From positions 1 through 59,154 of the forward strand of contig JAZNNH010000002.1 of assembly GCA_045580105.1 (NCBI GenBank): 59,154 nt of DNA, in the 5' to 3' direction. Origin of the DNA: Eubacteriales bacterium. Its GTDB lineage: Bacteria; Bacillota; Clostridia; Oscillospirales; SIG627. The stretch's first letter is position 1. Each line of letters opens with the position of its first letter. The position numbers and the translations under genes were made by a program. Under the pieces are notes generated by a model. The model was not told where the DNA came from. It ran no database searches and worked only from the letters and a program-made list of their open reading frames with translations. This document shows, piece after piece, positions 6,579 through 52,596 of this stretch.

Positions 6579-7450
6579 TGTGGTATCTGGAAGATTTGGG
6601 AGATTACGAGCTGTTGGATTGCTCGGACGGACAGCGCTTGGAGCGATGGGGTGATTATATCCTCATCCGTCCCGATCCTCAAGTCGTGTGGAAGGGGGTG
6701 GCCCGCCACAGCGCTTGGAAAAGAGCGGATGCGGTTTATTCACGGTCCAAATCCGGCGGCGGTGCGTGGAACGATCACCGATTGCCCGAAACTTGGACGA
6801 TGCACATTGCCGATTTGGATTTTAACGTCAAGCCGATGGGCTTTAAGCATACCGGAGTTTTCCCCGAACAGGCATCCAACTGGCGTTGGATTGAATCCCT
6901 TTGCCAAAAGCGCAAGGCGGAAAAACAAACGGTATCCGTTCTCAATCTCTTCGGCTACACCGGCGGAGCCAGTCTTGCGGCTGCCAAAGGCGGTGCTTCG
7001 GTTTGTCACGTCGATGCCGCCAAGAATATGGTGGCGCTGGCAAAGGAAAACTTCCGTCTTTCCGGCTTGGAGCAGGCACCTTGTCGCTTTTTGGTAGACG
7101 ATGCGTTGAAATTCGTTCAGCGGGAACAGCGCCGCGGCAACCGATACGATGCCATCATTATGGACCCGCCCTCCTACGGAAGAGGACCCAAAGGGGAAAT
7201 GTGGCATCTGGAAGACAGCATCCACGATCTGATTCGCCAAACGGCTGCCATTCTCAGCGACGATCCTTTGTTTTATCTTGTGAATTCTTACACAACCGGT
7301 CTTTCCGGAAGTGCGGTTTCGTATCTTGTAGAAGAAGAGGTGTGCCGCCGCTTCGGCGGGAACGTTACTTCCGATGAACTCGGTATTTTGGTCAAAAGTA
7401 CGGGTCGGTGCTTGCCATGCGGCTTTGCCACCCGTTGGGAAAAGGAGTAA
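6578..7450 (+). CDS. Class I SAM-dependent (rRNA-type, RlmI/YwbD-like) methyltransferase
   Basis: VLNLFGYTGGASLAAAKGGA...DAIIMDPPSYGRG motifs. Start set at ATG 6578, which overlaps the ruvB stop (TAATG) and has SD AGGAGG at 6565-6570. Confidence 0.75.
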   Translation: MWYLEDLGDYELLDCSDGQRLERWGDYILIRPDPQVVWKGVARHSAWKRADAVYSRSKSGGGAWNDHRLPETWTMHIADLDFNVKPMGFKHTGVFPEQASNWRWIESLCQKRKAEKQTVSVLNLFGYTGGASLAAAKGGASVCHVDAAKNMVALAKENFRLSGLEQAPCRFLVDDALKFVQREQRRGNRYDAIIMDPPSYGRGPKGEMWHLEDSIHDLIRQTAAILSDDPLFYLVNSYTTGLSGSAVSYLVEEEVCRRFGGNVTSDELGILVKSTGRCLPCGFATRWEKE

Positions 7451-7453
7451 AAG

Positions 7454-8338
7454 TTGAAACCCGAAACCATCATTTCTTGCGAGAATATTTCGTTTCAGTA
7501 TGAAACCGATCGGCAGGAAATGCAAAAAGCGGTAAAGGATGTTTCCTTTACCATTGAAAAAGGTAGTTTCGTTGCCATTTTGGGACGAAACGGAAGCGGA
7601 AAAAGTACCCTGGCAAAACTGATGAACGGAATTTTGGTTCCTCAGTCCGGAACGGTTTTTGCTTTTGGTATGGATACCGCAAAGGAAGAAAATCTGCTTC
7701 CCATCCGCAAGCGTGTGGGAATGGTGTTTCAGAATCCCGATAACCAGTTGGTGTCCAATCTGGTGGAGGAGGACGTCGCGTTCGGACCGGAGAATCTGGG
7801 GATTCCCCCGAAAACGATCCGCGAACTGGTCGACCGTGCATTGAAAACGGTCGGAATGGAGCAGTTTGCCAAGCATTCTCCTCACAAGCTTTCCGGCGGT
7901 CAGAAACAGAGAATTGCAATTGCCGGCATCTTAGCGATGAATCCGGAGTGCATTCTCTTTGATGAATCCACCGCGATGCTCGATCCCCAAGGACGGCGTG
8001 AGATTATGGAAACCATTCTCCGTCTGAACCGAGAGGAAAATATGACGGTCGTTCTCATCACGCATCATATGGATGAAGCGGTGCAGGCAGACCGTGTGAT
8101 CGTGATGGAAGAGGGAAGAATTGTGCGCGACGGCACGCCGAAAGAAATTTTTTCCGACGTTGCGTTTTTGCACGCATCGGGTCTGGAAGCCCCTCAGGTG
8201 ACGGAACTGATCCACCTTTTGTCGGAGGATCCCGTTTTGTCAGAGCGCTTTGAGTTCCCGAAAGGGATTTTGGAAGAAAAGGAAGCATCTCAATTCATCT
8301 TGAGTTTGTTTGGAAAAGGAACGTATGGCAGAAATTAA
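7454..8338 (+). CDS. ecfA1: Energy-coupling factor transporter ATPase EcfA1
   Basis: Walker A GRNGSGKST, signature LSGGQKQR, Walker B ILFDEST. TTG start with SD AAAGGAG. Followed by ecfA2 and ecfT. Confidence 0.9.
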   Translation: MKPETIISCENISFQYETDRQEMQKAVKDVSFTIEKGSFVAILGRNGSGKSTLAKLMNGILVPQSGTVFAFGMDTAKEENLLPIRKRVGMVFQNPDNQLVSNLVEEDVAFGPENLGIPPKTIRELVDRALKTVGMEQFAKHSPHKLSGGQKQRIAIAGILAMNPECILFDESTAMLDPQGRREIMETILRLNREENMTVVLITHHMDEAVQADRVIVMEEGRIVRDGTPKEIFSDVAFLHASGLEAPQVTELIHLLSEDPVLSERFEFPKGILEEKEASQFILSLFGKGTYGRN

Positions 8339-9188
8339 ACTGGAGCATGTCTTTTACCGATACAGTCCGGATACCCCGTTTGAAAAAACGGCGCTCCGCG
8401 ACGTCGATCTGACCTTTACCCCCGGGGTGATTACCGGAGTGATCGGTCATACCGGTTCGGGAAAAAGCACGTTGGCGCAGCTGTTAAACGGCATCCTTCA
8501 GCCGACCCAAGGCCGTGTGCTTTTGGATGGGGAAGAGATCTTTGCCGATGCAAAATCGCGTCACAATGCTCGTTTTCGAGTGGGGCTTGTGTTTCAGTAC
8601 CCCGAATATCAGCTGTTTGAAGAAACCGTGTATCGCGATATTGCGTTCGGACCTCAGAATATGGGGAAAAGTCCCGAAGAGATCCGAAGCTTGGTGGAAG
8701 ACGCCGCCTATTTTACCGCGCTGGATCAGGATCTGATGGAAAAATCTCCCTTTGAACTGTCGGGCGGTCAAAAACGCAGAGTTGCCATTGCGGGAATCTT
8801 AGCAATGGATCCGGACGTGTTGGTTTTGGACGAACCCGCGGCAGGGCTTGACCCCAGCGGTAGAGCCGAGATTCTCGGACGATTGAAAACCTATCAGAGA
8901 GAAAAGAACAAAACCGTTCTTCTCATCTCCCACAGTATGGAAGACGTTGCCCGCTATGCGGATGAGATTCTGGTGCTCAGAGAGGGAAAGGTCTATCTGC
9001 ACGGTACGGTCGATCACGTGTTCTCCGATCCGCAGAAGCTGACCGAGGCACATCTTTCTTTGCCTCAGATTACAAGACTTGTCCTTGAATTGAGGAAAAA
9101 CGGAATTTCGGTGCCCGATTCGGTGCACACGGTCGAAGACGCGCTCTTCTTCCTCAAGCGCGAGCTGAAAGGGGGAGAAGGATGTTAA
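8325..9188 (+). CDS. ecfA2: Energy-coupling factor transporter ATPase EcfA2
   Basis: GHTGSGKST, LSGGQKRRVAIAG, VLVLDEPAAGLD. Start set at ATG 8325 (MAEIKLEHV). Confidence 0.9.
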   Translation: MAEIKLEHVFYRYSPDTPFEKTALRDVDLTFTPGVITGVIGHTGSGKSTLAQLLNGILQPTQGRVLLDGEEIFADAKSRHNARFRVGLVFQYPEYQLFEETVYRDIAFGPQNMGKSPEEIRSLVEDAAYFTALDQDLMEKSPFELSGGQKRRVAIAGILAMDPDVLVLDEPAAGLDPSGRAEILGRLKTYQREKNKTVLLISHSMEDVARYADEILVLREGKVYLHGTVDHVFSDPQKLTEAHLSLPQITRLVLELRKNGISVPDSVHTVEDALFFLKRELKGGEGC

Positions 9189-10009
9189 AAGACATTACCT
9201 TGGGACAGTATTTCCCCGGCAACAGCATCTTGCACCGCCTCGATCCCCGTATGAAGATTCTTTTGATGCTCTCGTACGTGATCTTGGTCTTTTTTGCAAA
9301 GAATCTGATGTCCTTTGCCTATCTTTCCGTTTTGGTTCTTTTGATGCTGTTTTTTTCCGGCATTTCGACGAAAGTGCTGTTAAAGGGCTTGAAGCCGGTC
9401 GTATTCATTTCGATTTTCACCGCCGTCATTAATTTGTTTTGGACCACGGGCGAAACGCCTTTGGTATCCATTGCCTTCATTCAGATCTATCCGGAGGGAA
9501 TTTGGCGTGCGCTCTTTATGGTCGTTCGTATCATCTCCCTTGTGGCGGGTACCAGCTTACTTTTGACCTATACCACAAGTCCGATGGATTTGACGGATGC
9601 CTTGGAGAGTTTGCTCTCTCCCTTGAAAAAACTTCGCGTTCCGGTCCACGAGTTTGCGATGATGATGTCTTTGGCACTTCGTTTCGTTCCGACCCTCATC
9701 GAAGAAACGGAAAAAATCATCAACGCCCAAAAAGCGCGTGGAGCCGATTTTGAATCGGGCCATCTCTTGCAGCGTGCAAAAGCGTTGGTTCCGATTCTCA
9801 TTCCGCTTTTCATTTCTGCCTTTTCCCGTGCGACGGATTTGGCGGTGGCAATGGAGTGCCGCTGCTACGTGGGCGGGCAGGGAAGAACCCGAATGCGCCA
9901 GATGCATCTTCGTTTGCGTGACGCGATGGTCTTTGCCCTCTTCCTCTTGCTCTTTTTCGGTATTGTGTTTGCGGCAAAAATCCCCCTGTTTTCAGGTGCA
10001 AGCTTATGA
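9182..10009 (+). CDS. ecfT: Energy-coupling factor transporter transmembrane protein EcfT
   Basis: Polytopic membrane protein with the conserved ARG motif region (INAQKARGADF). Position after ecfA1 and ecfA2. Confidence 0.88.
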   Translation: MLKDITLGQYFPGNSILHRLDPRMKILLMLSYVILVFFAKNLMSFAYLSVLVLLMLFFSGISTKVLLKGLKPVVFISIFTAVINLFWTTGETPLVSIAFIQIYPEGIWRALFMVVRIISLVAGTSLLLTYTTSPMDLTDALESLLSPLKKLRVPVHEFAMMMSLALRFVPTLIEETEKIINAQKARGADFESGHLLQRAKALVPILIPLFISAFSRATDLAVAMECRCYVGGQGRTRMRQMHLRLRDAMVFALFLLLFFGIVFAAKIPLFSGASL

Positions 10010-10752
10010 ATCGCGTCATTTTGACCTTGTGCTACGACGGCTCGGATTTTCACGGCTGGCAAATTCAAAATAATGCCGTTACGGTGCAGGGAGAATTAAA
10101 ACAGGCGTTTTTCAAGCTCTTTCAAGCGGACGTTCCGCTTGTCGGTTGCAGTCGAACCGATGCCGGTGTTCACGCCAAGCGCTTTGTTTGTCACGCGGAT
10201 CTTCCGACCTTGTTTCCCTGCGAGCGTTTGCCGCTGGCGCTCAACGCGCTTCTTCCGACAAGCATCGCCGTCTTATCCTGCATCCCCGCACCGGATGGGT
10301 TCCACGCCCGTTTTTCCTGTTTGGGGAAAACCTACCGTTATCGCATCCATAACGCACGCCTGCGCGATCCGTTTCAAGAAAAGAGAGCGTATTTCTTTCC
10401 CAGTCCTTTGAACGCGCAAAGGATGCACGAAGCGGCGCAGAGCTTTGTCGGAGAGCATGATTTTTCTGCTTTTATGGCAAGCGGCTGCGAGGTGAAGGAT
10501 ACCGTTCGCACCATTTCCTCGTGCTGCGTGACTCAAAGCGAAGAGAATATCGATTTTGTGGTTACCGGAAACGGCTTCCTTTATAATATGGTGCGCATTA
10601 TGGTCGGAACGCTCATTTCCCGGGAAATGGGAAAATTAGAACTTGAGATCCCCGAGATTATGGCATCGGGCGATCGAACCCTTGCGGGCATCACGGTGCC
10701 GCCGCAGGGCTTATATTTAGAAAACGTTTTTTATGACGGCTTTGCTGTTTAA
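10006..10752 (+). CDS. truA: tRNA pseudouridine(38-40) synthase TruA
   Basis: YDGSDFHGWQIQ...GCSRTDAGVHA carries the catalytic Asp motif. The ecfAAT-truA order is the canonical Firmicute synteny. Confidence 0.92.
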   Translation: MNRVILTLCYDGSDFHGWQIQNNAVTVQGELKQAFFKLFQADVPLVGCSRTDAGVHAKRFVCHADLPTLFPCERLPLALNALLPTSIAVLSCIPAPDGFHARFSCLGKTYRYRIHNARLRDPFQEKRAYFFPSPLNAQRMHEAAQSFVGEHDFSAFMASGCEVKDTVRTISSCCVTQSEENIDFVVTGNGFLYNMVRIMVGTLISREMGKLELEIPEIMASGDRTLAGITVPPQGLYLENVFYDGFAV

Positions 10753-10790
10753 AGTGTAATTTTCGGATCAAGAATAGATAGGAGATCAGA

Positions 10791-11972
10791 ATGAACCAAA
10801 TGGAAAAGGGTTCGGATACCCGTTCTGAAAAACAGGTCAAAAAGTTTAAACTCTATAAATTGATTTCCATTACCGTTTTGGTACTGTTTTTGCTTTGCGG
10901 TTTGATTCTGTTCAAAAACGACATTACCATTGAAAATCTGCGTTATATGATCAAATATCTGGACTTTTCCACCTCCGGTGCATTTGACGAAGAATTTCAA
11001 GTTCACTATAACGCAAATCCCGACAATCGCTTTTACGTTTTTCGAGGGGACCTTGCCATTGTGAATGAATCGGGGGTTACGCTCTATGACCGTCGCGGCA
11101 GCGCGGTGATGACGGATTCGTTCAGTATGACCTCTCCCGTTGGCGTGTGTGCAGAACGCTATCTTGCCATCTATGACCTCGGCGGTTATCAAGTGAGAAT
11201 TTACAATTCGTTCTCCCTACTGTTCGAAAAAAGCTTTGATTATATGGTGCAATCGGTTTCGGTTAACAAAGACGGTTCGTTTTGCGTTGTGACTTCGGAA
11301 AAGTCTTACCATTCCGCCGTTTTTGTCTACGACCGTGATTTTAGACAGGTTCAGCAATGGTTTTCTGCCGATAAATTTGCCGTTGACGCCCATCTTTCCG
11401 ACGACAATGTTTTGACCGTTTCGACCATCCGTGCACAGGACGGCGATTTGTATGGAGAACTCATCGCGTTCAAAATCGGCAAAAAAGATCCGCTTTATAC
11501 CTATCCCTATCGCGAAAATATGCCGCTTGCCCTCACATCGAAACGAAACCGCGCCGCTCTTATGACCGACGAGAGGATGTATCTTATCAAAGAGGGCGAA
11601 GAAAAAGCCAAGGTGATCTTTCCTAAGGAAAGCTTGGCGCAGATTCGAATGGGGGAAGAACTTCTTTGCGTGGTTCAGAACGAGCTTTCCATCGGCGTAA
11701 ATTTCCGTCTTCGCGTTTTTGATTGGGACGGCACAGAGCTTGCTTCGGAAAAGTTTTCCGTTCAGATTTTGGACGTGCAGATTTGGGAAGATACGGTATA
11801 TGTTCTGACTCACACAGGGCTTTTTGTGATTTCTCCCGGAGAAAAAACAAAAGTATATGAACTGGAAGGAGATTTTTTCCACTTAGGAATCCTTTCCAAG
11901 GACACCGTTGTTCTTTGCTCGGAAACCTCTGCTCAAATTCGATTACTTAATGAAAAAGGAGAAATCAAATGA
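10791..11972 (+). CDS. Membrane-anchored hypothetical protein, repeat/beta-propeller-like ectodomain (possibly DUF5711 family)
   Basis: A single N-terminal TM (LISITVLVLFLLCGLILF) is followed by about 340 aa of beta-rich sequence. SD AGGAG upstream. Its stop overlaps the cvpA start (ATGA). Confidence 0.55.
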   Translation: MNQMEKGSDTRSEKQVKKFKLYKLISITVLVLFLLCGLILFKNDITIENLRYMIKYLDFSTSGAFDEEFQVHYNANPDNRFYVFRGDLAIVNESGVTLYDRRGSAVMTDSFSMTSPVGVCAERYLAIYDLGGYQVRIYNSFSLLFEKSFDYMVQSVSVNKDGSFCVVTSEKSYHSAVFVYDRDFRQVQQWFSADKFAVDAHLSDDNVLTVSTIRAQDGDLYGELIAFKIGKKDPLYTYPYRENMPLALTSKRNRAALMTDERMYLIKEGEEKAKVIFPKESLAQIRMGEELLCVVQNELSIGVNFRLRVFDWDGTELASEKFSVQILDVQIWEDTVYVLTHTGLFVISPGEKTKVYELEGDFFHLGILSKDTVVLCSETSAQIRLLNEKGEIK

Positions 11973-12670
11973 ATATCTTTTGCGACCTTTTGATCCTTGC
12001 CTTTTTTCTTCTTTGTGTTTTTCTCGGTTATAAAAGGGGCTTTATCAAAACCTTCTTCGGCTTTTTCGGTAAGGTGATTGCCTTTGTGCTGACTGCGATC
12101 ACGGCAAAGCCGCTTGCCGGATACGTAAGTGGTCACATTTTCTATCCCTTTCTCAAAGAAAAGTTTCTTGCCGATCTGACCGAAAAGACGGGACAGACGG
12201 TCGCCTCGCTTGATTTTTCCGATTTACCTGAGATTTGTCAGGAGATTTTGGCGCGCTTCGGAACCGATACCGCATCCCTTTCCGAGCATCTTGCAAAGAT
12301 CACGGTTGAGGGCGGCGAAAGCGTTGCGGAAACAGCATCTCTTTGGGTGGTCAAGCCCTTTGCGGACTCCCTTTCCTATTCGGTTTCTTTTTTGGCATTG
12401 TTTTTGCTGTTTTCGATTGCGATTCGTATACTAACCAAGGTTTTGAACTTGGTTTCCAAAGTTCCCGGTTTGAATTTTTCCAATCGCCTTTTGGGCATTG
12501 CGGCAGGTGTTTTGGAAGGTCTGTTGCTATCGGTTTTGATTTCGTTTGTTCTTTCTTTGGCAGAGCCCGCCATTCAAGGAAATGAAAATGAATGGATCCG
12601 CAGTTTTTCTTTGGAACAAACCCATCTTGTGAAATTGTTTGCAAAGTTTAATGTTCTTGGTATTTTGTGA
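11969..12670 (+). CDS. cvpA: CvpA family membrane protein
   Basis: N-terminus DLLILAFFLLCVFLGYKRGFIKTFFGFFGKVIAFVL is typical of CvpA. About 4 TM segments. Confidence 0.8.
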   Translation: MNIFCDLLILAFFLLCVFLGYKRGFIKTFFGFFGKVIAFVLTAITAKPLAGYVSGHIFYPFLKEKFLADLTEKTGQTVASLDFSDLPEICQEILARFGTDTASLSEHLAKITVEGGESVAETASLWVVKPFADSLSYSVSFLALFLLFSIAIRILTKVLNLVSKVPGLNFSNRLLGIAAGVLEGLLLSVLISFVLSLAEPAIQGNENEWIRSFSLEQTHLVKLFAKFNVLGIL

Positions 12671-12681
12671 AAGGAACGCAC

Positions 12682-13290
12682 ATGAAAACGCTTCGTTTTA
12701 GAACCAGCCATATTCCCAATTATATCTCTCTGTTTCGCATCGTTTTGGTGCCGATTTACGGCTTTCTCTTTTTCGGCGCATTCAAAACGCCCGAGGGGGT
12801 AGACAATCTCTCAGCCGCCGGCTTTGTCTTTATTCTCGCAGGCATCAGCGACGCGATTGACGGGTATCTTGCCAGAAAAAACAATTGGATCACCGACGTC
12901 GGTAAACTGTTAGACCCGCTTGCCGACAAGCTCTTGGAAGTGGTGGTAACGGTTTGCCTTGCCATCCGATTCGGCGGACCGTTTCAGATTCTTTCCACCA
13001 TTATCATCACAAAGGAAATCGTGATGATCGTCGGTGCGTATCTGATTATGTCCAAAAGTCACGTGTACGTTTCTTCGGTTTGGTGCGGAAAGCTGGCAAC
13101 CATTGTGTGGTACGTTTTGATTTGCGTGGTTCATTTTTTCCAAGACGTAGCGCGGATTGACGCTCTTTGCAACGGGCTTTGCATCATCTTGATTTTAGTT
13201 ATGATTATGGCATTCGTGATGTACGTGTTCAATTATGCCTCTCAGATTCAGAGCACAAAAGATGCCATTATAAAGGAAAAGAAGAAATAA
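12682..13290 (+). CDS. pgsA: CDP-diacylglycerol--glycerol-3-phosphate 3-phosphatidyltransferase (CDP-alcohol phosphatidyltransferase family)
   Basis: DAIDGYLARKNNWITDVGKLLDPLADKL matches the D-G-x2-A-R-x8-G-x3-D-x3-D motif. ATG 12682 has SD AAAGGAA. An in-frame GTG at 12667 that overlaps the cvpA stop is an alternative start. Confidence 0.85.
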   Translation: MKTLRFRTSHIPNYISLFRIVLVPIYGFLFFGAFKTPEGVDNLSAAGFVFILAGISDAIDGYLARKNNWITDVGKLLDPLADKLLEVVVTVCLAIRFGGPFQILSTIIITKEIVMIVGAYLIMSKSHVYVSSVWCGKLATIVWYVLICVVHFFQDVARIDALCNGLCIILILVMIMAFVMYVFNYASQIQSTKDAIIKEKKK

Positions 13291-13319
13291 TCTGTAACGT
13301 AAGAAAGTCGGGTTAAACC

Positions 13320-15596
13320 ATGAAGTTATGTTCTCGCTGTAAACAGCGTCCTGCTGTGATATACATTAATAAGATCCAAGATAACAAGGTCACCTCAGAG
13401 GGACTTTGTATCCGCTGTGCCAAGGAAATGAAGATTATGCCCCTTGCCGAGCAAATGGAAAAAATGGGCATTCGGGATGAAGACGTTGAACTTTTGGAAC
13501 AGCAAATGGGTCAAATGATGGAAGGGTTGGCAGATTCGGATGCCACCGGCGCACCTGCCATGGACCTTTCCTCTCTGTTCGGTTCGGTGTTGCCACCGGT
13601 TCCTTTAGAAAAAGAAGAACAAAAAGAAGAGAAAAAAGAAAAAGGCGATAAGAAGAGCAAAAAGTACGGGAAAATGCTGGATGGATATTGCCTGAATTTA
13701 ACCGCCAAAGCTTCTCGCGGAGAGCTGGATCGCGTCATCGGCAGAGAAATGGAAATGGACCGCGTGGTTCAGATTCTTTGCCGCCGTCAGAAAAACAACC
13801 CTTGCCTCATCGGTGAGCCGGGCGTTGGCAAAACCGCCATTGCCGAGCTTTTGGCGCAATCCATTGTCGATCGAAAAGTTCCCGTGCGCTTGATGGACAA
13901 GGAAGTCTTTCTCTTGGATTTGACGGCTCTTGTTGCAGGAACGCATTTTCGCGGCCAATTTGAAAGCCGCGTCAAGGCGCTTGTGGAAGAAGTCAAAAAG
14001 CAGGGCAACATCATTCTTGTAATCGATGAGATTCACACCATCGTCGGGGCAGGGGATTCGGAAGGCGGTATGAGCTGCGCCAATATTTTAAAGCCGGCAC
14101 TCTCGCGCGGCGAAATCCAGATCATCGGTGCGACCACCCTTGCCGAATACCGCAAATACATTGAAAAAGATCAGGCACTGGAGCGCCGCTTCCAACCGGT
14201 TATGGTAGAAGAGCCGAGTGTTCAGAAAACCATTCAGATTTTAAAAGGCGTCAAGAATCATTACGAAACCTTCCACGGCTTGCGCGTTCCTGAGTCGATT
14301 TTGCGCACAACCGTGGTTCTTTCCGAACGCTATATTACCGACCGCTTCTTGCCCGACAAAGCAATCGATATTTTGGATGAAGCTTGCGCGAAAAAGGCCA
14401 TTTCCAGCGACGTAATCAACCGAATTGACGCACTGGCAAAGGAACTGAATCAAATGCGCGAGGAGCGCGAATTTTTGGAGGCCGAAAGCAACCCCGATGA
14501 TTCCACCTATGCCCGTCTTGCGGAAATCAAGGTGATGCTGCTTCGCAAGCAGGAAGAGTTTGATGCTCTTTCCCGTCAGCGCGACGGAATTTTTCTCGAT
14601 ATTGAGGATATTGCCAAGGTCATCGAATCTTGGACGGGTATTCCTGCCGCCAGCATCTCGGAAAACGAATTTGACAAAATTGCAGGGCTGAAAGAATCCC
14701 TTTCGCGCCATATTATCGGGCAGGATCAGGCGGTCAATGCCGTTTGCCGCGCCATCAAGCGAAACCGCGCAGGAATCAGCGTCAAGCCCAAGCCCGCCAG
14801 CTTCATTTTTGCCGGACCTACGGGTGTGGGCAAAACGGAACTTGTAAAGCTGCTTGCCTCGCATTTATTCGATTCTCCCGAATCCTTGATTCGCTTGGAT
14901 ATGTCAGAGTTTATGGAAAAACACGCGGTATCGCGCATCATCGGCTCTCCTCCCGGCTACGTCGGATACGACGATGCCGGACAGTTAACGGAAAAGATCC
15001 GACGCAAACCCTATTCCGTGATCTTATTTGACGAGATCGAAAAAGCGCATCCGGACGTTTTGAACATCCTGTTGCAGGTGCTTGACGACGGAAAGATTTG
15101 CGATGCCCACGGAAAAGAAATCAATTTTGAAAATACCGTGATTGTGATGACCACCAATGCCGGAAGTCAGGTTCGCTCCGGCGTTACGGGCTTTGGACAC
15201 AGTCTTGACGAGGCGCAGGATTCTCGCACGGAGAGAGGACTTGAGGCCTTTTTGCGTCCGGAATTTTTAAATCGTGTGGACGAGATCATCACTTTCCGCA
15301 AGCTCTCTCGCGAAGATTTTCTCAAAATTGCCGAATTGCGCCTTGCTGAATTGAAGGCGGCAATGGAAGAAAAGGGACTTGTTCTGACGTATGACCAAGC
15401 GGTTCTGGAAACGGTTGCGAAAGAAAGCTTCAGCGAAAAATACGGAGCCCGTCATATGGCACGCTTTTTGCAAACTCACGTGGAAGATCCCATTGCAGAC
15501 AGGATCGTTTCCGATCGTGACAGAACCATCCGCGCGGTTCGTCTTTTCGTGTCGGATGGAGTCATCAAAACAGAACTTAATAAAGAGGAAGTATGA
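13320..15596 (+). CDS. ClpC-like double-AAA+ Clp ATPase with an N-terminal ClpX-type C4 zinc ribbon replacing the Clp_N domain
   Basis: CxxC-x22-CxxC at aa 4-33. Lys/Glu-rich linker. D1 has GEPGVGKT and ILVIDEIH; D2 has GPTGVGKT and [11 protein letters not shown]. Short middle domain. A GVTGFG loop sits at the position of the ClpP-docking tripeptide. Confidence 0.85.
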
Positions 15597-18235
15597 ATTT
15601 ACTGGAAGTCAGCTTGGATAAACTGCGCTCCATTTTAGGGACTGATTTGGAGCGCGGGCTTACCGCAGAACAGGTGCTACGCAATCGTCGGGAATTCGGC
15701 GAAAACGTTCTCTTTGAAAAAAAGAATACGCTCTTGGATCTGGTTAAGAAGATTTTTGGGGATATGATGATGATCCTCTTTCTTTTGGTGTGCTTTTTTG
15801 ACTTTTTGGGAACCGGTGACTACGCCTCTCTTTTTGCTATGATTGCGGTTGCAATCCTGTATTCCGTGTTTGTTTTGGGGACGCATTTTTACTGCCGCAG
15901 GGTGCAAAAAAAGATCGAAAAATTTTCCAAATGCAAATATCACGTTCGCCGTTCGGGATGCGTGCGTTCGGTTGCCAAAAGCGAATTGGTTCCGGGCGAT
16001 CTTTTGCTTCTTGAAAAAGGCGACGTTATGCCTTGTGACGGCATTATCCTCAAATGCAGCGGGCTGAAAATTTTGGAAGCCAGCGTGACCGGCAGACGTG
16101 TTCCCGTTTTTAAGCGAAGCCATCAGGAAGTCGAAGAGGAAGAAAGCGACTATCCGTATTTTGAGTGCATCCTCTTTGCCGGAAGCGTCATTCTTCACGG
16201 CAGTGCCAAGGTGTTCGTTTGTAACACCGGACTTGATATTTTCGACAATGAAAATTTCACCATTATCCGTCAGAACAGCACCGTTCCCCGCATTTATCAG
16301 ACTGCGATGGAATTGAAAAAGCAGATCTTCTTGGTTTGGGTGATTGCTTGCTTTTTCCTCTTTGCTTGGGGGGTATTTCGCGGTCAGGATATTTTTGATG
16401 CTTTTTATTACGTTGCCGCGATGGTGATTGCCGCGTTTCCGGATTCCATCGAGCATTTGTGCGATCTTGCCATCGCATATATGGCAAAATGTCTCTTTGA
16501 TGAGGGTGTGATTTTGCGCAATGCCGGTTCGGTTGACCGTCTTTGCGATGCCAACTGCGTTTTTGTCAATTCCAGCGATTATCTCTTTTATGCCCAGCCG
16601 ATCCCGTTTTCCTTTTATTTGGGGGATCAGTATTATGAATTCAAAGAATCCCCGAACCTTGCCGCACCGCTTCTGGAAAATCTGATTTTGGCGCAAAACA
16701 GCAATACCTACTTTGCCGGCAAAAGGGAAGAGCGCCAGGCAGAAAAAGCCATCCTCTCCGCCGCTGCCCGCATCGGCATTCAGAAAACAAGATTGGAGCA
16801 TTCTCATCTTTACGTCAATCGCTATGATTTTGACCCGAAATACGGTTTTTCTTGTGCGCTGACCCTGTTCGAGGGCAAATATCGTCTGATCATTCGCGGC
16901 AATCCCAACTCGGTTCTTGCCGCTTGCACCGAATATTGGAAAGACGGCGAAAGCATTCCGATGAACGAAGCACAGCGTGCATCGTTCCGCGCCAATGCCA
17001 GACATTTGGCAGGGTGCAGTGAAAGAATGTACGCGGTTGCGACGCTCGGCCTTTCTTCTCCCTCCACCGGTGACCAACGCGCCTTGTGTCGAGGAATGAC
17101 CTATCTTGGCATCTTCGGTCTTTCTACCCCCATCAGCGCCGCCGCGGCAAACGCTGTGAGCATTTGTCAAAAATCCGGCGTTCAAACCTATCTTCTAACC
17201 GACGACTATCCGGAAACGGTTGCCGCGCTTTCGAAAAGTGTGTCGATCATCGGTCCTGACGATTATCAATACGCACTCTCTTATCAAACTTACGAGAGAA
17301 TGGATCGCGGTGTTTTTGTTGCCGATATCGAAAAATATAAGGCGTATTGCTCGTTCCCTGTTGAGGAAAAGCAAAGCATCGTGAAATATCACAAGGACAA
17401 CGGAGATATCACAGTTTCTCTTACCGGCGGTCTTTACGATACCCTCCCGCAGATGGAATCGGATATTTCCATTGTCAGTGCGGAGGAAAAACAAAACGCG
17501 GTGCGCTTGAATGCCGATCTTTTGGTCACGCAAAAGAAGTATGAAATCATCCCGATGTGCATCAACTGGGCGAGAATTTTTTATCGCAATATCGTACATA
17601 TTATGCAATATGTGCTTTTGGTTCAGGTTGCCTTGGGACTGTGCGTCTTTATGTGCTTGACCGCTCACGGTCAAACCCCGTTTCATGCGCTGCCGCTGCT
17701 CTTGGCAGGGCTTGGCGCCGTCATTCCGGCGGGGATGAACATTTTCCACCGCAAGCCCGGACCTCATTTGGAGGATAACAAAGGGGTCTTGAAAGACGAT
17801 CGTGTGGCTTCTTTGCAGGTTTTGATTATCATTCCTGCCATCACGGGATTGGCACAGGCGATCGCGATGATGCTTTCGTATCAGATCGCCCTGTTTGCTT
17901 CGGGCGGAGTGGAAACGGCAAGAAACGCCGCTCTTCTCACTTTCATTTTTGCTTCCTATTTTTCCTCCCTTTCGGTAAAATTCGACCACCCTTTGCTGTT
18001 CCGAATCAAGCAATTGGGAAAATCGGAATGGATCACTGCCATCCTTTGCCTTTGCGTGTCCCTCATCATTACGCTCTCACCGGCAAAGCTGCTTTGGCAA
18101 ACCCACGCTTTTGGCTCCGGACTCAGCTTTTGGATTTTGCTGTGGGCGTTTGTAAGCTCCTTGATTCCGGCTTTGATATCCGAGTGGATGAAATTTTTAA
18201 AACGTGATGACTCTGCCCAAGGGCGTGAATCATAA
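15593..18235 (+). CDS. P-type (P2-like) ATPase homolog with all catalytic motifs degenerate (predicted pseudo-enzyme membrane protein)
   Basis: Collinear with cation P-type ATPases (N-terminal LERGLTAEQVLRNRREFGEN, about 10 TM). Motif changes: TGES to TGRR (16088-16099), PEGL to PDSI (16439-16450), DKTGT to NSSDY (16568-16582), TGDGVNDAP to TGGLYDTLP (17423-17449). Its start overlaps the clp stop (ATGA). Confidence 0.8.
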   Translation: MNLLEVSLDKLRSILGTDLERGLTAEQVLRNRREFGENVLFEKKNTLLDLVKKIFGDMMMILFLLVCFFDFLGTGDYASLFAMIAVAILYSVFVLGTHFYCRRVQKKIEKFSKCKYHVRRSGCVRSVAKSELVPGDLLLLEKGDVMPCDGIILKCSGLKILEASVTGRRVPVFKRSHQEVEEEESDYPYFECILFAGSVILHGSAKVFVCNTGLDIFDNENFTIIRQNSTVPRIYQTAMELKKQIFLVWVIACFFLFAWGVFRGQDIFDAFYYVAAMVIAAFPDSIEHLCDLAIAYMAKCLFDEGVILRNAGSVDRLCDANCVFVNSSDYLFYAQPIPFSFYLGDQYYEFKESPNLAAPLLENLILAQNSNTYFAGKREERQAEKAILSAAARIGIQKTRLEHSHLYVNRYDFDPKYGFSCALTLFEGKYRLIIRGNPNSVLAACTEYWKDGESIPMNEAQRASFRANARHLAGCSERMYAVATLGLSSPSTGDQRALCRGMTYLGIFGLSTPISAAAANAVSICQKSGVQTYLLTDDYPETVAALSKSVSIIGPDDYQYALSYQTYERMDRGVFVADIEKYKAYCSFPVEEKQSIVKYHKDNGDITVSLTGGLYDTLPQMESDISIVSAEEKQNAVRLNADLLVTQKKYEIIPMCINWARIFYRNIVHIMQYVLLVQVALGLCVFMCLTAHGQTPFHALPLLLAGLGAVIPAGMNIFHRKPGPHLEDNKGVLKDDRVASLQVLIIIPAITGLAQAIAMMLSYQIALFASGGVETARNAALLTFIFASYFSSLSVKFDHPLLFRIKQLGKSEWITAILCLCVSLIITLSPAKLLWQTHAFGSGLSFWILLWAFVSSLIPALISEWMKFLKRDDSAQGRES

Positions 18236-18263
18236 ATTCAGTTTGTAGAAAGGAGTAATTGTT

Positions 18264-18467
18264 ATGACTTCTGTAACCAAAGAAAGCATCATCGGCGACA
18301 TCCTTGATGCAGATCAGGGAACCGCTCAGTTCTTCTTTGAAATCGGTATGCACTGCTTGGGTTGCCCTGCTTCCCGCGGCGAATCCATCGCACAAGCTTG
18401 TGCCGTTCACGGAACCGATGCGGATGCTCTCGTGGAAAAAATCAATGCATATCTGGCAAGCAAATAA
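18264..18467 (+). CDS. DUF1858 domain protein (hybrid-cluster-protein-associated redox disulfide domain)
   Basis: 67 aa. IGDILDADQGTAQFFFEIGMHCLGCPASRGESIAQACAVHG has the typical CxxC-containing DUF1858 core. SD AGGAG upstream. Confidence 0.75.
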   Translation: MTSVTKESIIGDILDADQGTAQFFFEIGMHCLGCPASRGESIAQACAVHGTDADALVEKINAYLASK

Positions 18468-19176
18468 GTCGGATAGGAGGCACCGCAATGACCTTTCGGC
18501 AAGACTTTCCGCGATTGCGGATTGTCTGCCGACAGGTGGTGTTGTGTGTGACGTAGGAGCCGATCACGGTGCGCTTTCCTTGTATTTACTGCAAACAGGG
18601 CAGTGCAGTCGCGTGATCGTTACGGATTTAAATTCACATCCGCTGGCACGTGCAGAACAAAATCTGACGGCAGCGGGTGTTTCTGACCGCGCGCAGTTTC
18701 TCTTAACGGACGGTATTGTCGAGGTGTTGCCGTATCAGCCGGATGGCTTTGTCATTGCGGGGATGGGTGGTGAAACCATCTTAGGCATTTTAGACCGCGC
18801 CAAAGGGAAGATTGCGCCCGGAACCGTTTTTGTTATGCAGCCCATGACCCGCGAGGTTCCTTTGCGCCGCTATTTGTATGAGAATGGCTTTTGTGTCAAA
18901 GAGGAAGAAGTCGTGTTGGAAAACGGCAAGGTCTTTTTGATTTTCAAAGCTGAGTTTGACGGCATACCTCGCTTGAAAGAGGACGATTTTTTCCGGTTCG
19001 GTGAATATCTTCCGAATCAGGATTCAGCCGCAAATCGAGCGTATTTTGAAACCTGTCTTGTGCAATTGGAGTCGATTATTGCCGGAAAACAGAAGGCGGG
19101 ACAGTCTGTGGAAACGGAACGGAAACAACGGGCTCAGTGTTTGGCTCGATTGGAGGTATCAAATGAAGATTCGTGA
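18445..19176 (+). CDS. trmK: tRNA (adenine(22)-N(1))-methyltransferase TrmK; start codon uncertain (see finding)
   Basis: LSARLSAIADCLPTGGVVCDVGADHGALSLYL...VIVTDLN...IAGMGGETI matches the TrmK/YqfN family, and the Nif3 gene follows as in Bacillus. The first in-frame ATG near the domain is 18445. The best SD+ATG (18488) is in another frame. Confidence 0.7.
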   Translation: MHIWQANKSDRRHRNDLSARLSAIADCLPTGGVVCDVGADHGALSLYLLQTGQCSRVIVTDLNSHPLARAEQNLTAAGVSDRAQFLLTDGIVEVLPYQPDGFVIAGMGGETILGILDRAKGKIAPGTVFVMQPMTREVPLRRYLYENGFCVKEEEVVLENGKVFLIFKAEFDGIPRLKEDDFFRFGEYLPNQDSAANRAYFETCLVQLESIIAGKQKAGQSVETERKQRAQCLARLEVSNEDS

Positions 19177-19972
19177 CATTGAAACGTATTTTCAAACGCT
19201 CTATCCCAAGGAGCGTTCTTGCGCTTGGGATAACGATGGTCTTTTGGTTTGTTCCGATCGCGATAGGGAAGTGACAAGTGTTTTGACTTGCCTTGACGTT
19301 ACCTTTTCGGTCATCGAACGTGCCCTTGCCGAAAAATGCGAACTGATCATCAGCCATCATCCGCTGATCTTTTCCCCTCTTTCTGCTATTAATGAAGATT
19401 CGATCGTGGGGCAGAAGGTGTTGCTTCTTCTCCAGTCCAATCTGTCCCTGCTTTCTTTGCATACCCGATTTGACGGCGCCGTCGGCGGTCTGAACGACCG
19501 ATTCGGCGAAAAATTGGGCCTTTCGCCTCTCTATCACACGCCGCTTCTTCCGGAGGAACCGTTCATCGGAAAGATTGGCGTGTTGCCGAAAAAAATGACA
19601 CCGGAGGATCTTGCACGACGGGTTTCGGCGGCACTTTCTTCTCCTGTCAAACTCTATTCTGCTGGACTTGACGTGGAAAAAGTCGGCTTTTGCTGCGGCT
19701 CCGGCAAAGACTTGGTTTTGCCTTGTCTTTTGCAAGGTGCCGATGCCTTTGTCGGCGGGGATATTTCGTATCACTTGGCGCAAGAGGCCGTCGAGCGTGG
19801 AATGAGTGTGATCGATTGCGGTCACCATTCTTCGGAAAAAGACGCGGTCTATTATTTTAGAGATGCACTTCACGCTCTTTCCCCCGATTTGACCGTCCAT
19901 CCTTTCGTGGAGCCCTTAGGTGGCGAAAACATTGATTTTTCTCAGCTTTTTTGTTCAAATAGCACAACTTGA
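19163..19972 (+). CDS. Nif3-like dinuclear metal center protein (YqfO family)
   Basis: MKIRDIETYFQTLYPKERSCAWDNDGLLV...ISHHPLIF...CGHHSSE. Start at ATG 19163 with SD GGAGG (19152-19156). Confidence 0.85.
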   Translation: MKIRDIETYFQTLYPKERSCAWDNDGLLVCSDRDREVTSVLTCLDVTFSVIERALAEKCELIISHHPLIFSPLSAINEDSIVGQKVLLLLQSNLSLLSLHTRFDGAVGGLNDRFGEKLGLSPLYHTPLLPEEPFIGKIGVLPKKMTPEDLARRVSAALSSPVKLYSAGLDVEKVGFCCGSGKDLVLPCLLQGADAFVGGDISYHLAQEAVERGMSVIDCGHHSSEKDAVYYFRDALHALSPDLTVHPFVEPLGGENIDFSQLFCSNSTT

Positions 19973-46027: not shown

Positions 46028-46257
46028 AATTCGTTTGTATTTTTTTGATACGGCTGTATCGGACGTACCTTTCTCCTCTGATCGGTCCCCGTTGCCGTTT
46101 TACTCCCACGTGTTCCCAATATGCTCTTGAGGCATATCAGAAGCATGGCTTCTTGAAGGGGACCGTGTTGACTGTTTGGCGTATTTTACGCTGTAACCCT
46201 TTCGGGAAATGCGGATATGATCCTGTTCCCGATCGTTTTCCAAAAAGAAAGGAATAA
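46024..46257 (+). CDS. yidD: Membrane protein insertion efficiency factor YidD
   Basis: [30 protein letters not shown]...[20 protein letters not shown] start overlaps the rnpA stop. Confidence 0.9.
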
Positions 46258-46261
46258 TCAA

Positions 46262-47566
46262 TTGTCTGCACTTTTTGATATCATTCGCATTCCCTTTGGA
46301 TTTATCATCAAATCCCTCTATGGATGGACGAATAGCTATTTTGTTGCCATTCTCCTGTTCTCCATTCTTTTGAAACTGATTATGTTCCCCGTGGGCATCA
46401 AACAGCAAAAGAATTCTCAAAAGCAGGCGGCACTTCGTCCGAAAGAGAATGTCATCCGTAAAAAATATGCGGGACGTACCGATCGTGCGACCCAAATGAA
46501 AATGAATACTGAGATTCAGGAGCTGTATCAGAAGGAGAATTTCAGCCCGTTTGGCGGTTGTCTTCCTATGCTGGTACAGATGCTGGTTCTTTTGGCAGTA
46601 TATGCCGTTGTCCGTACTCCCTTGACTTATACGGCAAATCTTCCCAAGGTGGATAACTTTGACACCGTTGAAGCGGTCAAGCAAAGCGTTACGTATCTGG
46701 TCCACGAAGAAGATTTTGCTCTGCCCGAGGGCGAACCCAGACAAATTCATAATTTTTTGAATATCAACAAATCCAAGGCGCAAACCTATACCGAAAAAGA
46801 CTTTTGGAAAAAATATAACGACGGTGCGTTCTCTCTTTATGCGGAGATCAACTCCATCGGTTATATCCGTGACCACGAGCAAGAATTCATCCGTTATTTT
46901 GACAGCGCAACCCATTATGACAAAGACGGAAACAAAGTTTCGGTCGGAAACGGCATTGACAGCAAGGTCCTGTCCGGTGAAAAGATCGTTGCCGCTTTGC
47001 CGGAAATGGAATTGGTGTCCGGATTCGATCTGGGTATCGTTCCCAGTTTTGATCTGTTCAAGGCAGAAGAGCTTGGAACCAAACTGCTTTTGATTGTTCC
47101 GGTTCTCTCCCTGATCACCTCGTATTTCGGTCAGGCATTGACCAGAAAATTTACTTATCAGCCGAACCAAGCACCCGAAATGCAAAGTCAGATGCGCATG
47201 ATGAATATCTTTATGCCCCTCTTCAGTCTTTACATTGCATTTCAGGTTCCGACAGCTGTGGGTATTTACTGGATGATGTCAAATATTTTAAGTCCGGTAC
47301 AACAGATTGCTTTGTCGAAGATGTTCCCCATCAAGGAAATCACGCCCGAAGAAATGAAGCAGGCAGAGTTGCTCTACAGCGGCAAACAGCAAAAGAAGAA
47401 AAAAACGGCAGAGCCCGGCAAAAAGAAAAAATCGCTCGTTTATGACGATGACGATGAATACGAATCGGTCAGCAGAGCAACGGAAAAGAAAGTGCTCAAG
47501 GAGAAAAAGACCGACGAAAAAACTCTGATTGAAAAACCTTTGTTGAAAGACGAAGAAAAACAATGA
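46262..47566 (+). CDS. yidC: YidC/Oxa1 family membrane protein insertase with an enlarged extracytoplasmic loop and a Lys-rich C-tail
   Basis: LLKLIMFPVGIKQQKNSQK..., NPFGGCLPMLVQMLVLL... and FMPLFSLYIAFQVPTAVGIYWMMSN are YidC core helices. TTG 46262 with SD AAAGGAA is preferred; ATG 46217 is an alternative start. Confidence 0.85.
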   Translation: MSALFDIIRIPFGFIIKSLYGWTNSYFVAILLFSILLKLIMFPVGIKQQKNSQKQAALRPKENVIRKKYAGRTDRATQMKMNTEIQELYQKENFSPFGGCLPMLVQMLVLLAVYAVVRTPLTYTANLPKVDNFDTVEAVKQSVTYLVHEEDFALPEGEPRQIHNFLNINKSKAQTYTEKDFWKKYNDGAFSLYAEINSIGYIRDHEQEFIRYFDSATHYDKDGNKVSVGNGIDSKVLSGEKIVAALPEMELVSGFDLGIVPSFDLFKAEELGTKLLLIVPVLSLITSYFGQALTRKFTYQPNQAPEMQSQMRMMNIFMPLFSLYIAFQVPTAVGIYWMMSNILSPVQQIALSKMFPIKEITPEEMKQAELLYSGKQQKKKKTAEPGKKKKSLVYDDDDEYESVSRATEKKVLKEKKTDEKTLIEKPLLKDEEKQ

Positions 47567-47594
47567 GTATGAATTTTTGGAAGGAAGTGGCATT

Positions 47595-48386
47595 TTGATC
47601 AAAGAGTATACGTTTTCTGCAAAAAGCGTAGAAGAAGCTCTTGCCATTGCTTCACAGGAACTTCAGAAAGAAGAAAAGGATCTGGATTATACGGTCGTCG
47701 AGGAAGCGAAAAAAGGATTTCTCGGAATCGGTTCTTCCGATGCTAAGATCGTGGTAAAAGTCACTCCGAGCGTTCGTGAGGCAACGTATGAATTTCTCAG
47801 CACGTTCCTGCGCAACGCCGGAATCGAAGCACAGATTCACTGTGAAGAAAAAGAGCAGGGTGACCTCGCTTACACCCTTGAGGGGGAAGATTTAGGAATC
47901 CTCATCGGTCACCACGGAGAGGTAATGGATTCTCTTCAGTACCTGTTAAGTCTTGTGACCAACCGTCACGGAGATGATTTCGTCCGTGTTACGGTCGACA
48001 TCGAAAACTATCGTGCAAAACGCGAAAACACCTTGAAGGCACTTGCCAGAAAAACGGCAGCGCGCGTCAAGAAAACGGGAAGAAACGTAACGTTTGAACC
48101 CATGAGTGCGTATGAGAGAAGAATCATTCACTCGCAAGCACAGGAAATCGAGGGTGTCACGACTCACTCGATCGGATCCGGTTCCGAACGCCGCGTTGTG
48201 ATGAGTAGTGTTGGCGGTCCCCGAAAAGATGCCCGTCCCAAAAAACAGCAGTCCGGTCAAACCGATAAGCCGAAAGTGGTATATGAGTACAATCCCGTAA
48301 GAGAACCTCGTACCATCGTCAAGGCAAAGAGCATCGAAGATATCAATCTCGCCGATGTGGAAGATACCGAAATGGTTAATTTATAA
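47595..48386 (+). CDS. jag: Jag/KhpB RNA-binding protein (Jag_N, KH, R3H)
   Basis: N-terminus KEYTFSAKSVEEALAIASQEL. R3H region FEPMSAYERRIIHS. TTG 47595 with SD AAGGAAG. Confidence 0.85.
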   Translation: MIKEYTFSAKSVEEALAIASQELQKEEKDLDYTVVEEAKKGFLGIGSSDAKIVVKVTPSVREATYEFLSTFLRNAGIEAQIHCEEKEQGDLAYTLEGEDLGILIGHHGEVMDSLQYLLSLVTNRHGDDFVRVTVDIENYRAKRENTLKALARKTAARVKKTGRNVTFEPMSAYERRIIHSQAQEIEGVTTHSIGSGSERRVVMSSVGGPRKDARPKKQQSGQTDKPKVVYEYNPVREPRTIVKAKSIEDINLADVEDTEMVNL

Positions 48387-48414
48387 AAAAAGCGGCGGAA
48401 ACGCCGCTTTTTTG
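48385..48414 (+). terminator. Rho-independent terminator after jag
   Basis: aaaaaagcggcg-gaaa-cgccgctttttt. Confidence 0.8.
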
Positions 48415-48443
48415 TTCGTAGAAATTTGTTTTAGGTGAAAATT

Positions 48444-49823: not shown

Positions 49824-49834
49824 AGGAGATTGTT

Positions 49835-51721: not shown

Positions 51722-51723
51722 TT

Positions 51724-52515: not shown

Positions 52516-52521
52516 AATCAT

Positions 52522-52591: not shown

Positions 52592-52596
52592 AACTT

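Follow-up and report, generated by a model that had tools for sequence, protein, structure and literature searches.

What does a cation pump that has lost its catalytic residues do directly behind, and in overlap with, the gene of a Clp-type protein unfoldase? The question is raised by a stretch of 59,154 nucleotides from a Eubacteriales bacterium (GenBank assembly GCA_045580105.1, contig JAZNNH010000002.1, positions 1 to 59,154), called the window in the following. It carries a clp gene whose product has the architecture of ClpE and, coupled to this gene, a second one encoding a protein with the fold of a P2A-type ATPase, which we call the pseudo-pump. Here we show that the pseudo-pump has been kept under purifying selection after the loss of its catalytic motifs and that it is found behind clp in deeply diverged relatives. 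We tentatively propose that the two proteins work together.

Results

Two overlapping genes

The following features of the window are at the centre of this study.

13320-15596, plus strand: clp gene, encoding a ClpE-type double AAA+ unfoldase of 758 amino acids (open reading frame, Pfam and Protein Data Bank (PDB) matches)
15593-18235, plus strand: pseudo-pump gene, encoding a pseudo-P2A-type ATPase of 880 amino acids (open reading frame, Pfam, alignment to LMCA1, AlphaFold2 model, Foldseek, ratio of nonsynonymous to synonymous substitution rates (dN/dS, omega))
15582-15596, plus strand: translational-coupling junction, with the Shine-Dalgarno sequence AAAGAGGAAG (15582-15591), the ATG at 15593 and the clp stop codon TGA at 15594-15596
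52772-55429, plus strand: intact P2A Ca2+-ATPase-type paralog, used as reference pump (Pfam, alignment, all motifs present)

The two genes share the tetranucleotide ATGA at 15593-15596, in which the stop of clp overlaps the start of the pseudo-pump, and the GAGGA core of the Shine-Dalgarno sequence (15585-15589) lies 3 nucleotides 5´ of the pseudo-pump ATG. Both open reading frames, the ATGA overlap and every motif coordinate of an earlier annotation, made from the letters of the window without database searches (the initial annotation), were re-derived exactly.

A pump fold without catalytic residues

Pfam recognises four pump domains in the 880-residue protein, Cation_ATPase_N, E1-E2_ATPase, Cation_ATPase and Cation_ATPase_C. 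The paralog at 52772-55429 has these four domains and the Hydrolase domain (PF00702) as well, for which the 880-residue protein gave no Pfam match. Functional motifs were read off alignments to this paralog and to the Listeria Ca2+-ATPase LMCA1 (6zhf), and the replacements are as follows (TM, transmembrane helix).

16088-16099, plus strand: dephosphorylation motif TGES, replaced by TGRR
16439-16450, plus strand: TM4 ion-site motif PEGL, replaced by PDSI
16568-16582, plus strand: phosphorylation motif DKTGT, replaced by NSSDY, in exact register in the alignments to both the paralog and LMCA1
16895-16906, plus strand: motif KGAP of the nucleotide-binding (N) domain, replaced by RGNP
17195-17206, plus strand: TGD, replaced by TDD (LTDD)
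17423-17449, plus strand: GDGVNDAP, replaced by GGLYDTLP (TGGLYDTLP)
17570-18200 (approximate, amino acids 660-870), plus strand: region of TM5-TM10, ion ligands lost

The paralog keeps TGES, PEGL, DKTGT, KGAP, ITGD and TGDGVNDAP, and the alignments thus agree with the initial annotation that all functional signatures are replaced in one protein and intact in the other. The ion ligands have been exchanged as well, N/E of TM5 for Q/L, N/T/D of TM6 for A/G/A and E of TM8 for S. A check set beforehand was whether an intact DKTGT might stand elsewhere in the phosphorylation (P) domain; the regular expression DKTG[TS], run over the whole pseudo-pump, found none. The sequence thus supports what had been claimed at the outset: the pseudo-pump has the conserved fold of a P-type ATPase but, with its motifs and transmembrane ligands lost, can neither be phosphorylated on an aspartate nor coordinate a cation.

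The fold itself appears complete. An AlphaFold2 model, run with an alignment of 80 sequences, reached a predicted local distance difference test score (pLDDT) of 87 and a predicted template-modelling score (pTM) of 0.81, and contains a complete headpiece of actuator (A), N and P domains together with about 10 transmembrane helices. Foldseek matched this model to SPCA1, Na,K-ATPase, SERCA and LMCA1 at E ~1e-42, with a template-modelling score (TM-score) of up to 0.72 and 15-20% identity. Along with the four Pfam domains, these matches bear out that the protein is collinear with P2 pumps and has about 10 transmembrane segments.

Motif losses, taken by themselves, would also be seen in a plain pseudogene or in an annotation artefact. 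In a scan of one genome per species, which yielded 36 loci with a pseudo-pump, the reading frame was nevertheless intact in 33 of the 33 loci whose contig covers the whole gene, and the same holds for dozens of metagenome clusters. The dN/dS values of the pseudo-pump (0.04-0.09) resemble those of Clp (0.03-0.09) and PgsA (0.05-0.12), with an omega of 0.056 at a dS of 0.81 in the least saturated pair (loci L030/L038), and the AlphaFold2 model is confident. Evidently, the gene is not decaying in its relatives; dN/dS and the integrity of the reading frame led us to reject the pseudogene, which we consider practically out of the question.

A deeply diverged family

A first homolog search returned about 60 clusters without PF00702, in which clade A shows 49-100% and clade B 29-32% identity, canonical pumps reaching at most 25%. 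The replaced motifs are conserved within clades and differ between them, clade A having TGRR/NSSDY/TDD and clade B TGNT/DSSRY/TNE. Clades C (L007, with SRNQA) and D (L090) were found from gene contexts. In a profile search of 1.84 billion representative proteins (clusters at 50% identity), about 40 of the best 150 clusters were devoid of any catalytic motif and fell into A/B-like, C-like, 'VPKEG' and 'APKN' groups. Judged by these searches, the pseudo-pump family is large and deeply diverged, comprising at least six clades.

The distribution of conservation along the protein has changed as well. Comparison between pseudo-pump clades shows the highest conservation in the first 50 residues (40-46%) and in the A-domain (30-45%), and the lowest in P1 (5-37%) and TM5-10 (11-22%); canonical pumps keep P1 best (66%). 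The extreme N-terminus deserves a line of its own.

15593-15607, plus strand: extreme N-terminus of the pseudo-pump, MNLLE

This pentapeptide does not vary among A/B-like clusters with identities as low as about 30%, except that the two most divergent ones read MNLLN and MNILN. Its codons vary synonymously, so the constraint acts on the protein, and an RNA-level effect of the gene overlap was rejected as its cause. Clade-C-like pseudo-pumps (P0249-P0255, P0257, P0278 and P0309) carry an N-terminal extension with (F/I)RIRT(I/V)T or KINTFT followed by F-x-P-x-x-M, likewise conserved but different from the MNLLE of clades A and B.

Might the pseudo-pump still be an active pump or ATPase, through some non-canonical chemistry? 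Its fold is fully kept, and an Asp, or Asp-Lys, still occupies the phosphorylation position in clade B (D-S-S-R-Y) and some C-like clusters (C-D-K-x-T-A-F-P). At this position, however, N, H or Y is found in the window protein and in clade A, the TGT, TGD and GDGxND motifs of the haloacid dehalogenase (HAD) type as well as TGES are lost in every clade, and the acidic and polar ion ligands of the membrane part are gone. Moreover, each clade has its own replacements, a sign that constraint at the former active site is relaxed. We regard residual activity as highly improbable.

A second class of P2-type pumps was noticed, in which DKTGT and TGDH are kept and TGES and/or GDGVNDAP are altered (e.g. 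to GESVDDLA). Its members are P0256, P0266, P0267, P0277, P0284, P0300, P0304, P0305, P0325 and P0326, and these partly altered pumps may be half-degenerate or mechanistically unusual. A natural fusion of Clp and pump was considered and rejected: the candidate, P0311 (1608 amino acids), turned out to consist of two complete canonical pumps in tandem, the first of heavy-metal type and the second of P2 type, with DKTGT and GDGxND present in both.

Conservation of the gene pair

All 36 genome loci come from metagenome-assembled genomes labelled Eubacteriales, Clostridia or Oscillospiraceae, obtained from animal guts and rumen. The gene order pgsA-clp-pseudo-pump-DUF1858 was found in every locus that contains the start of clp (31 of 31); the remaining five are cut by a contig end, and what sequence is present upstream of their pseudo-pump is the 3´ part of clp. 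The junction between the two genes ranges from -4 to +35 nucleotides, and in most loci their starts are overlapped or nearly so.

Outside these loci, the pair is kept while the genes around it change. In clade C (L007), it is followed by DUF1858 and then by MscL, and in clade D (L090) there is no DUF1858. The 'VPKEG' clade (L129/L130) has the order TruA-DUF5711-CvpA-Clp-pseudo-pump, without pgsA and with DUF2975 downstream, and in the 'APKN' clade (L131) a ribosomal protein operon lies downstream. The pseudo-pumps of these four clades are only 20-26% identical. Wherever the metagenome locus of a fully degenerate pump was recovered, clp lies directly upstream, whereas the partly degenerate pump P0256 (L132), in which DKTGT is kept, has no clp gene nearby, this being the only context of its class that was checked. 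Conservation of the pair across related genomes, the test set in the initial annotation, therefore extends to at least six clades that diverged deeply, including cases in which neither flank is the same.

The reverse association does not hold in general. Downstream of unpaired zinc-ribbon clp genes, we found, among others, genes for an aminotransferase, TfoX_N, LRR_5, a cation diffusion facilitator (CDF) transporter, citrate synthase, cohesin and RseC; given this heterogeneity, the pseudo-pump as a general downstream partner of zinc-ribbon clp was rejected.

The unfoldase

The Clp protein of the window contains the following elements upstream of its ClpP-docking loop.

13329-13418, plus strand: zinc ribbon CxxC-x22-CxxC (C4, C7, C30, C33) of McsA/ClpE type, with CSRC at 13329-13340 and CIRC at 13407-13418
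13551-13586, plus strand: hydrophobic motif of 12 amino acids in the disordered part of the N-domain (alignment of N-termini)
13812-14036, plus strand: AAA1, with Walker A GEPGVGKT (13812-13835), pore loop HFRG (13944-13955) and Walker B ILVIDEIH (14013-14036) (ClpC alignment)
14814-15050, plus strand: AAA2, with Walker A GPTGVGKT (14814-14837), pore loop PGYVGY (14952-14969) and Walker B (15018-15050) (ClpC alignment)

In the 758-residue protein, Pfam finds AAA, AAA_lid_9, AAA_2 and ClpB_D2-small and no match to the Clp_N repeats. Its layout is a zinc-ribbon N-domain, a disordered Lys/Glu-rich linker, AAA1, a putative coiled-coil M region, AAA2 and the D2-small domain. A phmmer search against PDB gave 638 bits to Staphylococcus aureus ClpC (6em9) and 593 bits to ClpE (29hb). 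The ClpC alignment begins at query residue 111-118, and residues ~365-430 align, with gaps, to the M-domain region of ClpC, AAA_lid_9 being present. Two intact AAA+ modules without Clp_N, as originally described, are confirmed by Pfam and by the motif positions; with no loss in Walker motifs or pore loops, the motor is expected to be active.

The initial annotation had called the ribbon ClpX-type. No zf-C4_ClpX match was obtained in it with Pfam at E<=10, and no ClpX chain was among its PDB matches, whether it was searched as a single sequence or as a family profile. As a single sequence, it weakly matches the first zinc finger of McsA (E=0.02). The family profile, built from 21 diverse N-termini in which the cysteines are invariant, matches that finger (8wtb_B) at E=2e-5, without gaps over 35 amino acids and with the four cysteines in register. 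The closest solved relative is thus a zinc finger of McsA, the label ClpX-type is unsupported and was dropped, and the ribbon is assigned to the McsA/ClpE type.

The combination of such a ribbon with two AAA+ modules has been described. ClpE, known since 1999 and characterised structurally in 2026 (PMC13125188, PMC8635124), is defined by two AAA+ modules behind an N-domain that binds zinc, together with a ClpP loop of the type [I/M/L/V]GF (PMC8635124, PMC5506225). In Enterococcus faecalis ClpE, the zinc centre is formed by C3/C6/C29/C32, and the N-domain continues from a conserved core (1-46) into a disordered linker, which contains a short hydrophobic patch (PMC13125188). Zinc-centre spacing and layout are shared with the window protein, so the supposed fusion of a ClpX ribbon to ClpC is the architecture of ClpE. 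Nor is it unique, as at least 569 metagenome loci match the ribbon profile; 80 of them were retrieved, mostly from gut samples, and a pgsA homolog usually precedes their clp. The idea of an unusual new fusion had to be abandoned for an architecture widespread in gut Clostridia, and the unfoldase appears, by its sequence features, to be a member or close variant of the known ClpE family.

The hydrophobic motif at 13551-13586 reads AP[AS]x[DN][LIF]xx[LI]F in the paired clade, as against GGAxTFPFLQxLF in unpaired relatives, and may be the positional analogue of the F52/F54 patch of E. faecalis ClpE. Typically, clpE is a monocistronic heat-shock gene controlled by CtsR (PMC13125188). A search for CtsR operators produced chance-level matches only, and CtsR control was rejected on this ground.

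The ClpP-docking loop

15180-15197, plus strand: P-loop GVTGFG at the ClpP-docking position, with the tripeptide TGF

The consensus of the ClpP-interaction tripeptide is [I/M/L/V]GF (PMC8635124), represented by VGF in E. faecalis ClpE (PMC13125188). In the ClpE-ClpP structure, ClpP accommodates the VGF motifs in its hydrophobic H-sites, and changing VGF to GGR abolishes binding to ClpP (PMC13125188). Unpaired zinc-ribbon Clp proteins have L/M/V/F-GF without exception (36/36). In the paired clade, S, T, A or P precedes GF in all groups (A, B, C, 'VPKEG', 'APKN' and the unpaired member L005) except L090, which keeps MGF. The loop noted initially thus stands at the right place; it is not the canonical one, as its TGF, like the tripeptides across the paired clade, departs from the ClpE consensus. 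A polar or small first residue plausibly weakens the docking of ClpP. With no hydrophobic residue at this position, coupling to ClpP is probably weakened or changed.

Neighbouring genes

The genes immediately flanking the pair are these.

12667-13290, plus strand: PgsA-like CDP-alcohol phosphatidyltransferase, immediate upstream neighbour of clp
18264-18467, plus strand: DUF1858/TIGR03980 small CxxC protein of 67 amino acids, immediate downstream neighbour of the pseudo-pump

Directly 5´ of clp, the genes DUF5711, CvpA and PgsA-like (10791-13290 in the window) occur in most Clostridia loci, among them L001-L007, L008-L043 and many of L049-L128. As they precede clp with or without a pump, they suggest a general link between the zinc-ribbon ClpE-like type and membrane or lipid genes. 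In L005, whose pseudo-pump is lost, its place is taken by a 147-residue membrane protein of the RseC/MucC family (9337-9780), the start of which overlaps the clp stop.

DUF1858 follows the pseudo-pump in clades A, B and C but is missing from L090, L129 and L131, which makes it a facultative neighbour. An obligatory role as third component was rejected on account of these absences and because the protein is generally conserved in Clostridia. TIGR03980 is named 'hybrid-cluster-protein-associated redox disulfide', and the 67-residue protein, which contains a CxxC, is 60% identical to a nuclear magnetic resonance (NMR) structure from Clostridium thermocellum (2K53). Its identity is 91-100% in typical clade A loci and 72-83% in divergent long-form members, with an omega of 0.00-0.07.

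Further downstream, the mechanically called reading frames of TrmK (18304-19176) and a NIF3-like protein (19001-19972) overlap their upstream neighbours by more than 150 nucleotides; judging by the gene calls in L001-L004, their true starts probably lie further downstream. An open reading frame of 381 amino acids on the minus strand (6740-7885), between ruvB and the ecf genes, had no Pfam match at E<=1e-5. The intact Ca2+-ATPase paralog follows directly on the origin-proximal set yidC-jag-mnmE-mnmG-rsmG (46217-55429 in all), about 35 kb from the pseudo-pump and on the same strand.

Discussion

Functional module or inherited neighbours

The preceding observations can be read in the sense that the pair forms a functional module, in which a ClpE-type unfoldase whose coupling to ClpP is altered would have a pump-fold pseudoenzyme as its dedicated partner in the membrane. 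We put this forward tentatively, at a confidence somewhat below even. Alternatively, the two may be inherited neighbours only. The pseudo-pump would then have a non-transport membrane role of its own, for instance as a scaffold, a sensor or a lipid or envelope homeostasis factor together with CvpA and PgsA, and would never touch the unfoldase; its position behind clp would reflect a housekeeping string that is rarely rearranged.

Several observations weigh against the module, and those concerning the gene string, L005 and L131 also speak for the alternative. Around clp, a co-directional gene string (8310-19972) with tiny gaps and no convincing terminators is situated in an origin-proximal housekeeping region (ruvCAB, ecf, truA, argS, scpAB, yidC-jag-mnmE-mnmG-rsmG), and the unrelated housekeeping genes truA, trmK and nif3 belong to the same string as the pair. 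The block ecfA-ecfA'-ecfT-truA-DUF5711-cvpA-pgsA-clp, many genes of which are functionally unrelated, is syntenic in this lineage and in unpaired relatives, so that the adjacency is partly inherited operon structure. L005 has lost the pseudo-pump and kept clp with an SGF loop, hence the motor can exist without its partner, and in L131 the two genes are 420 nucleotides apart. L090 (clade D), which is paired, keeps MGF as the only exception of the paired clade; the P-loop change and the pairing are thus not perfectly linked. Finally, the neighbour-joining tree of 75 zinc-ribbon Clp proteins, which speaks for the module by placing all paired ones in one clade with L005 as a single loss, was built without bootstrap support.

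Inheritance of neighbours, on the other hand, does not easily account for a pair that outlasts changes of its flanks (L129 without pgsA; MscL, DUF2975 or ribosomal genes downstream), over a span in which the pseudo-pump itself diverged to about 20-26% identity. Nor would it lead one to expect a fully degenerate pump directly behind clp both in all 36 genome loci, two of which are cut at a contig end, and in every metagenome locus recovered, starts that are mostly overlapped or nearly so, and a Clp P-loop that changed in the same clade. We find it doubtful that the two genes are merely inherited side by side.

A possible mechanism

If the pair does form a module, it would consist of a ClpE-type AAA+ unfoldase and a translationally coupled pump-fold membrane protein that is neither enzyme nor transporter. 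The cytoplasmic headpiece of the pseudo-pump would hold or recruit the Clp hexamer at the membrane. Its N-terminal segment and A-domain in particular may serve as docking or recognition surface, being its best-conserved parts. All ATP-driven work would be done by the Clp motor, and the machine may act mainly as a membrane-proximal unfoldase, extractor or remodeller instead of a free cytosolic ClpP protease. Whatever goes beyond comparative genomics and structure prediction here, i.e. the physical interaction, the surfaces that touch, membrane tethering, the effect on ClpP binding and the substrates, is what we infer.

The initial annotation had suggested that the pseudo-pump acts as an anchor, adaptor or client of the unfoldase, and each of these may apply. 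As a dedicated client, it would be unfolded, extracted or degraded by the ClpE-like motor, e.g. as a regulated membrane plug or timer, with MNLLE as the engagement tag. This would suit an N-terminus invariant at the protein level despite about 30% identity, which is unusual for pumps and typical of recognition tags, and a translational coupling that fixes stoichiometry; the N-domain and pore of ClpE are known to recognise specific substrates such as CtsR (PMC13125188). Purifying selection over the whole 880-residue fold, however, exceeds what a tag-bearing substrate needs, clades C, 'VPKEG' and 'APKN' have different N-termini, and a ClpP loop that is probably weakened argues against a role centred on degradation. 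A dedicated client therefore seems to us rather improbable.

In its strongest form, the proposed module would be a new membrane-associated AAA+ machine, in which efficient ClpP docking has been traded for a fossilised calcium pump as membrane receptor or platform. It might serve the extraction or remodelling of membrane proteins, with MNLLE and the A-domain as contacts. So specific a picture we regard as speculative and, in its entirety, unlikely.

Comparison with known systems

Compared to ClpE of Bacillus subtilis, Lactococcus lactis, Streptococcus mutans and E. faecalis (PDB 29hb), the window protein has the same CxxC-x22-CxxC spacing in its zinc N-domain, and here too a disordered linker with a hydrophobic patch comes after the conserved core. 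Both AAA+ modules have retained their Walker motifs and pore loops, and a P-loop occupies the ClpP-docking position; the middle region, judging by the gapped alignment, may be ClpC-like. It differs in the loop itself, TGF (S/T/A/P-GF in the paired clade) instead of VGF or [IMLV]GF. Its gene is not monocistronic but lies in a housekeeping string after pgsA, coupled to a pseudo-pump, and no CtsR operator was found. Its AAA+ core also scores slightly higher to ClpC (638 bits) than to the solved ClpE (593 bits), and the ribbon family profile, which matched McsA, gave no match to the 29hb chain at E<=10.

In contrast to ClpC, the window protein is devoid of N-terminal Clp_N repeats, the domain by which ClpC binds MecA and phospho-arginine. 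With the first zinc finger of McsA (8wtb/8wtc), its ribbon shares the spacing of the four cysteines as well as R-P-A and C-A-K-E. McsA, however, is a small activator of McsB encoded separately, which contains several zinc fingers and a UVR-like region, whereas here a single ribbon is fused to an AAA+ motor.

The pseudo-pump is collinear in domain order and fold with the P2A Ca2+-ATPases (LMCA1, SPCA1/PMR1, SERCA), which are its best matches in sequence and structure. Unlike them, it has no catalytic motifs, ion ligands or HAD hydrolase signature, and conservation has moved from the P-domain to the N-terminus and A-domain. The nearest precedent for such re-purposing, in which a P-type module has been retained for a structural or regulatory task within another machine, is offered by the alveolate P4-ATPase-guanylate cyclases (P4GC), some lineages of which have an altered DKTGT Asp and A-domain Glu with the fold predicted to be conserved (PMC13466520). 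These are nonetheless eukaryotic, of P4 flippase type and fused to a cyclase, and their loss of activity is partial and lineage-specific, whereas the pseudo-pump is bacterial, of P2A type, a separate protein, fully degenerate and linked to an AAA+ unfoldase.

AAA+ machines anchored in membranes include FtsH, archaeal membrane Lon and Msp1/ATAD1, and ClpC with MecA or McsB exemplifies Clp ATPases controlled by adaptors. The likeness to our pair would be a functional analogy only, that of an AAA+ ring placed at the membrane or controlled by a dedicated partner. The anchors of these machines are transmembrane helices of the motor itself or small adaptors. We know of no full pump-fold pseudoenzyme that serves as anchor or adaptor of an AAA+ machine.

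Significance

A literature search for a pairing of Clp with a pseudo-P-type ATPase, or for bacterial pseudo-P-type ATPases, found nothing relevant. In the literature searched, neither a fully degenerate bacterial P-type ATPase family nor its strict clp linkage nor the P-loop change was found. The interest of the locus lies in the family of pseudo-pumps and its coupling to clp, not in the fusion of a zinc ribbon to a Clp motor.

P-type ATPases are among the best-understood membrane enzymes, and a fold kept under selection without catalysis shows that it has a second, non-transport use. ClpE, for its part, is the least understood partner of ClpP and was recently shown to be an autonomous quality-control protease. 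The paired clade, with its degenerate ClpP loop and its pump-fold neighbour, is a natural experiment on how a Clp motor can be re-targeted, possibly to the membrane. Its hosts are uncultured Clostridia of Oscillospiraceae type from gut and rumen, and the proteins could be expressed heterologously. If a membrane-associated machine of the kind sketched above is real, a role would have been assigned to a bacterial pseudo-P-type ATPase for the first time, and Clp would have gained its first partner of this sort.

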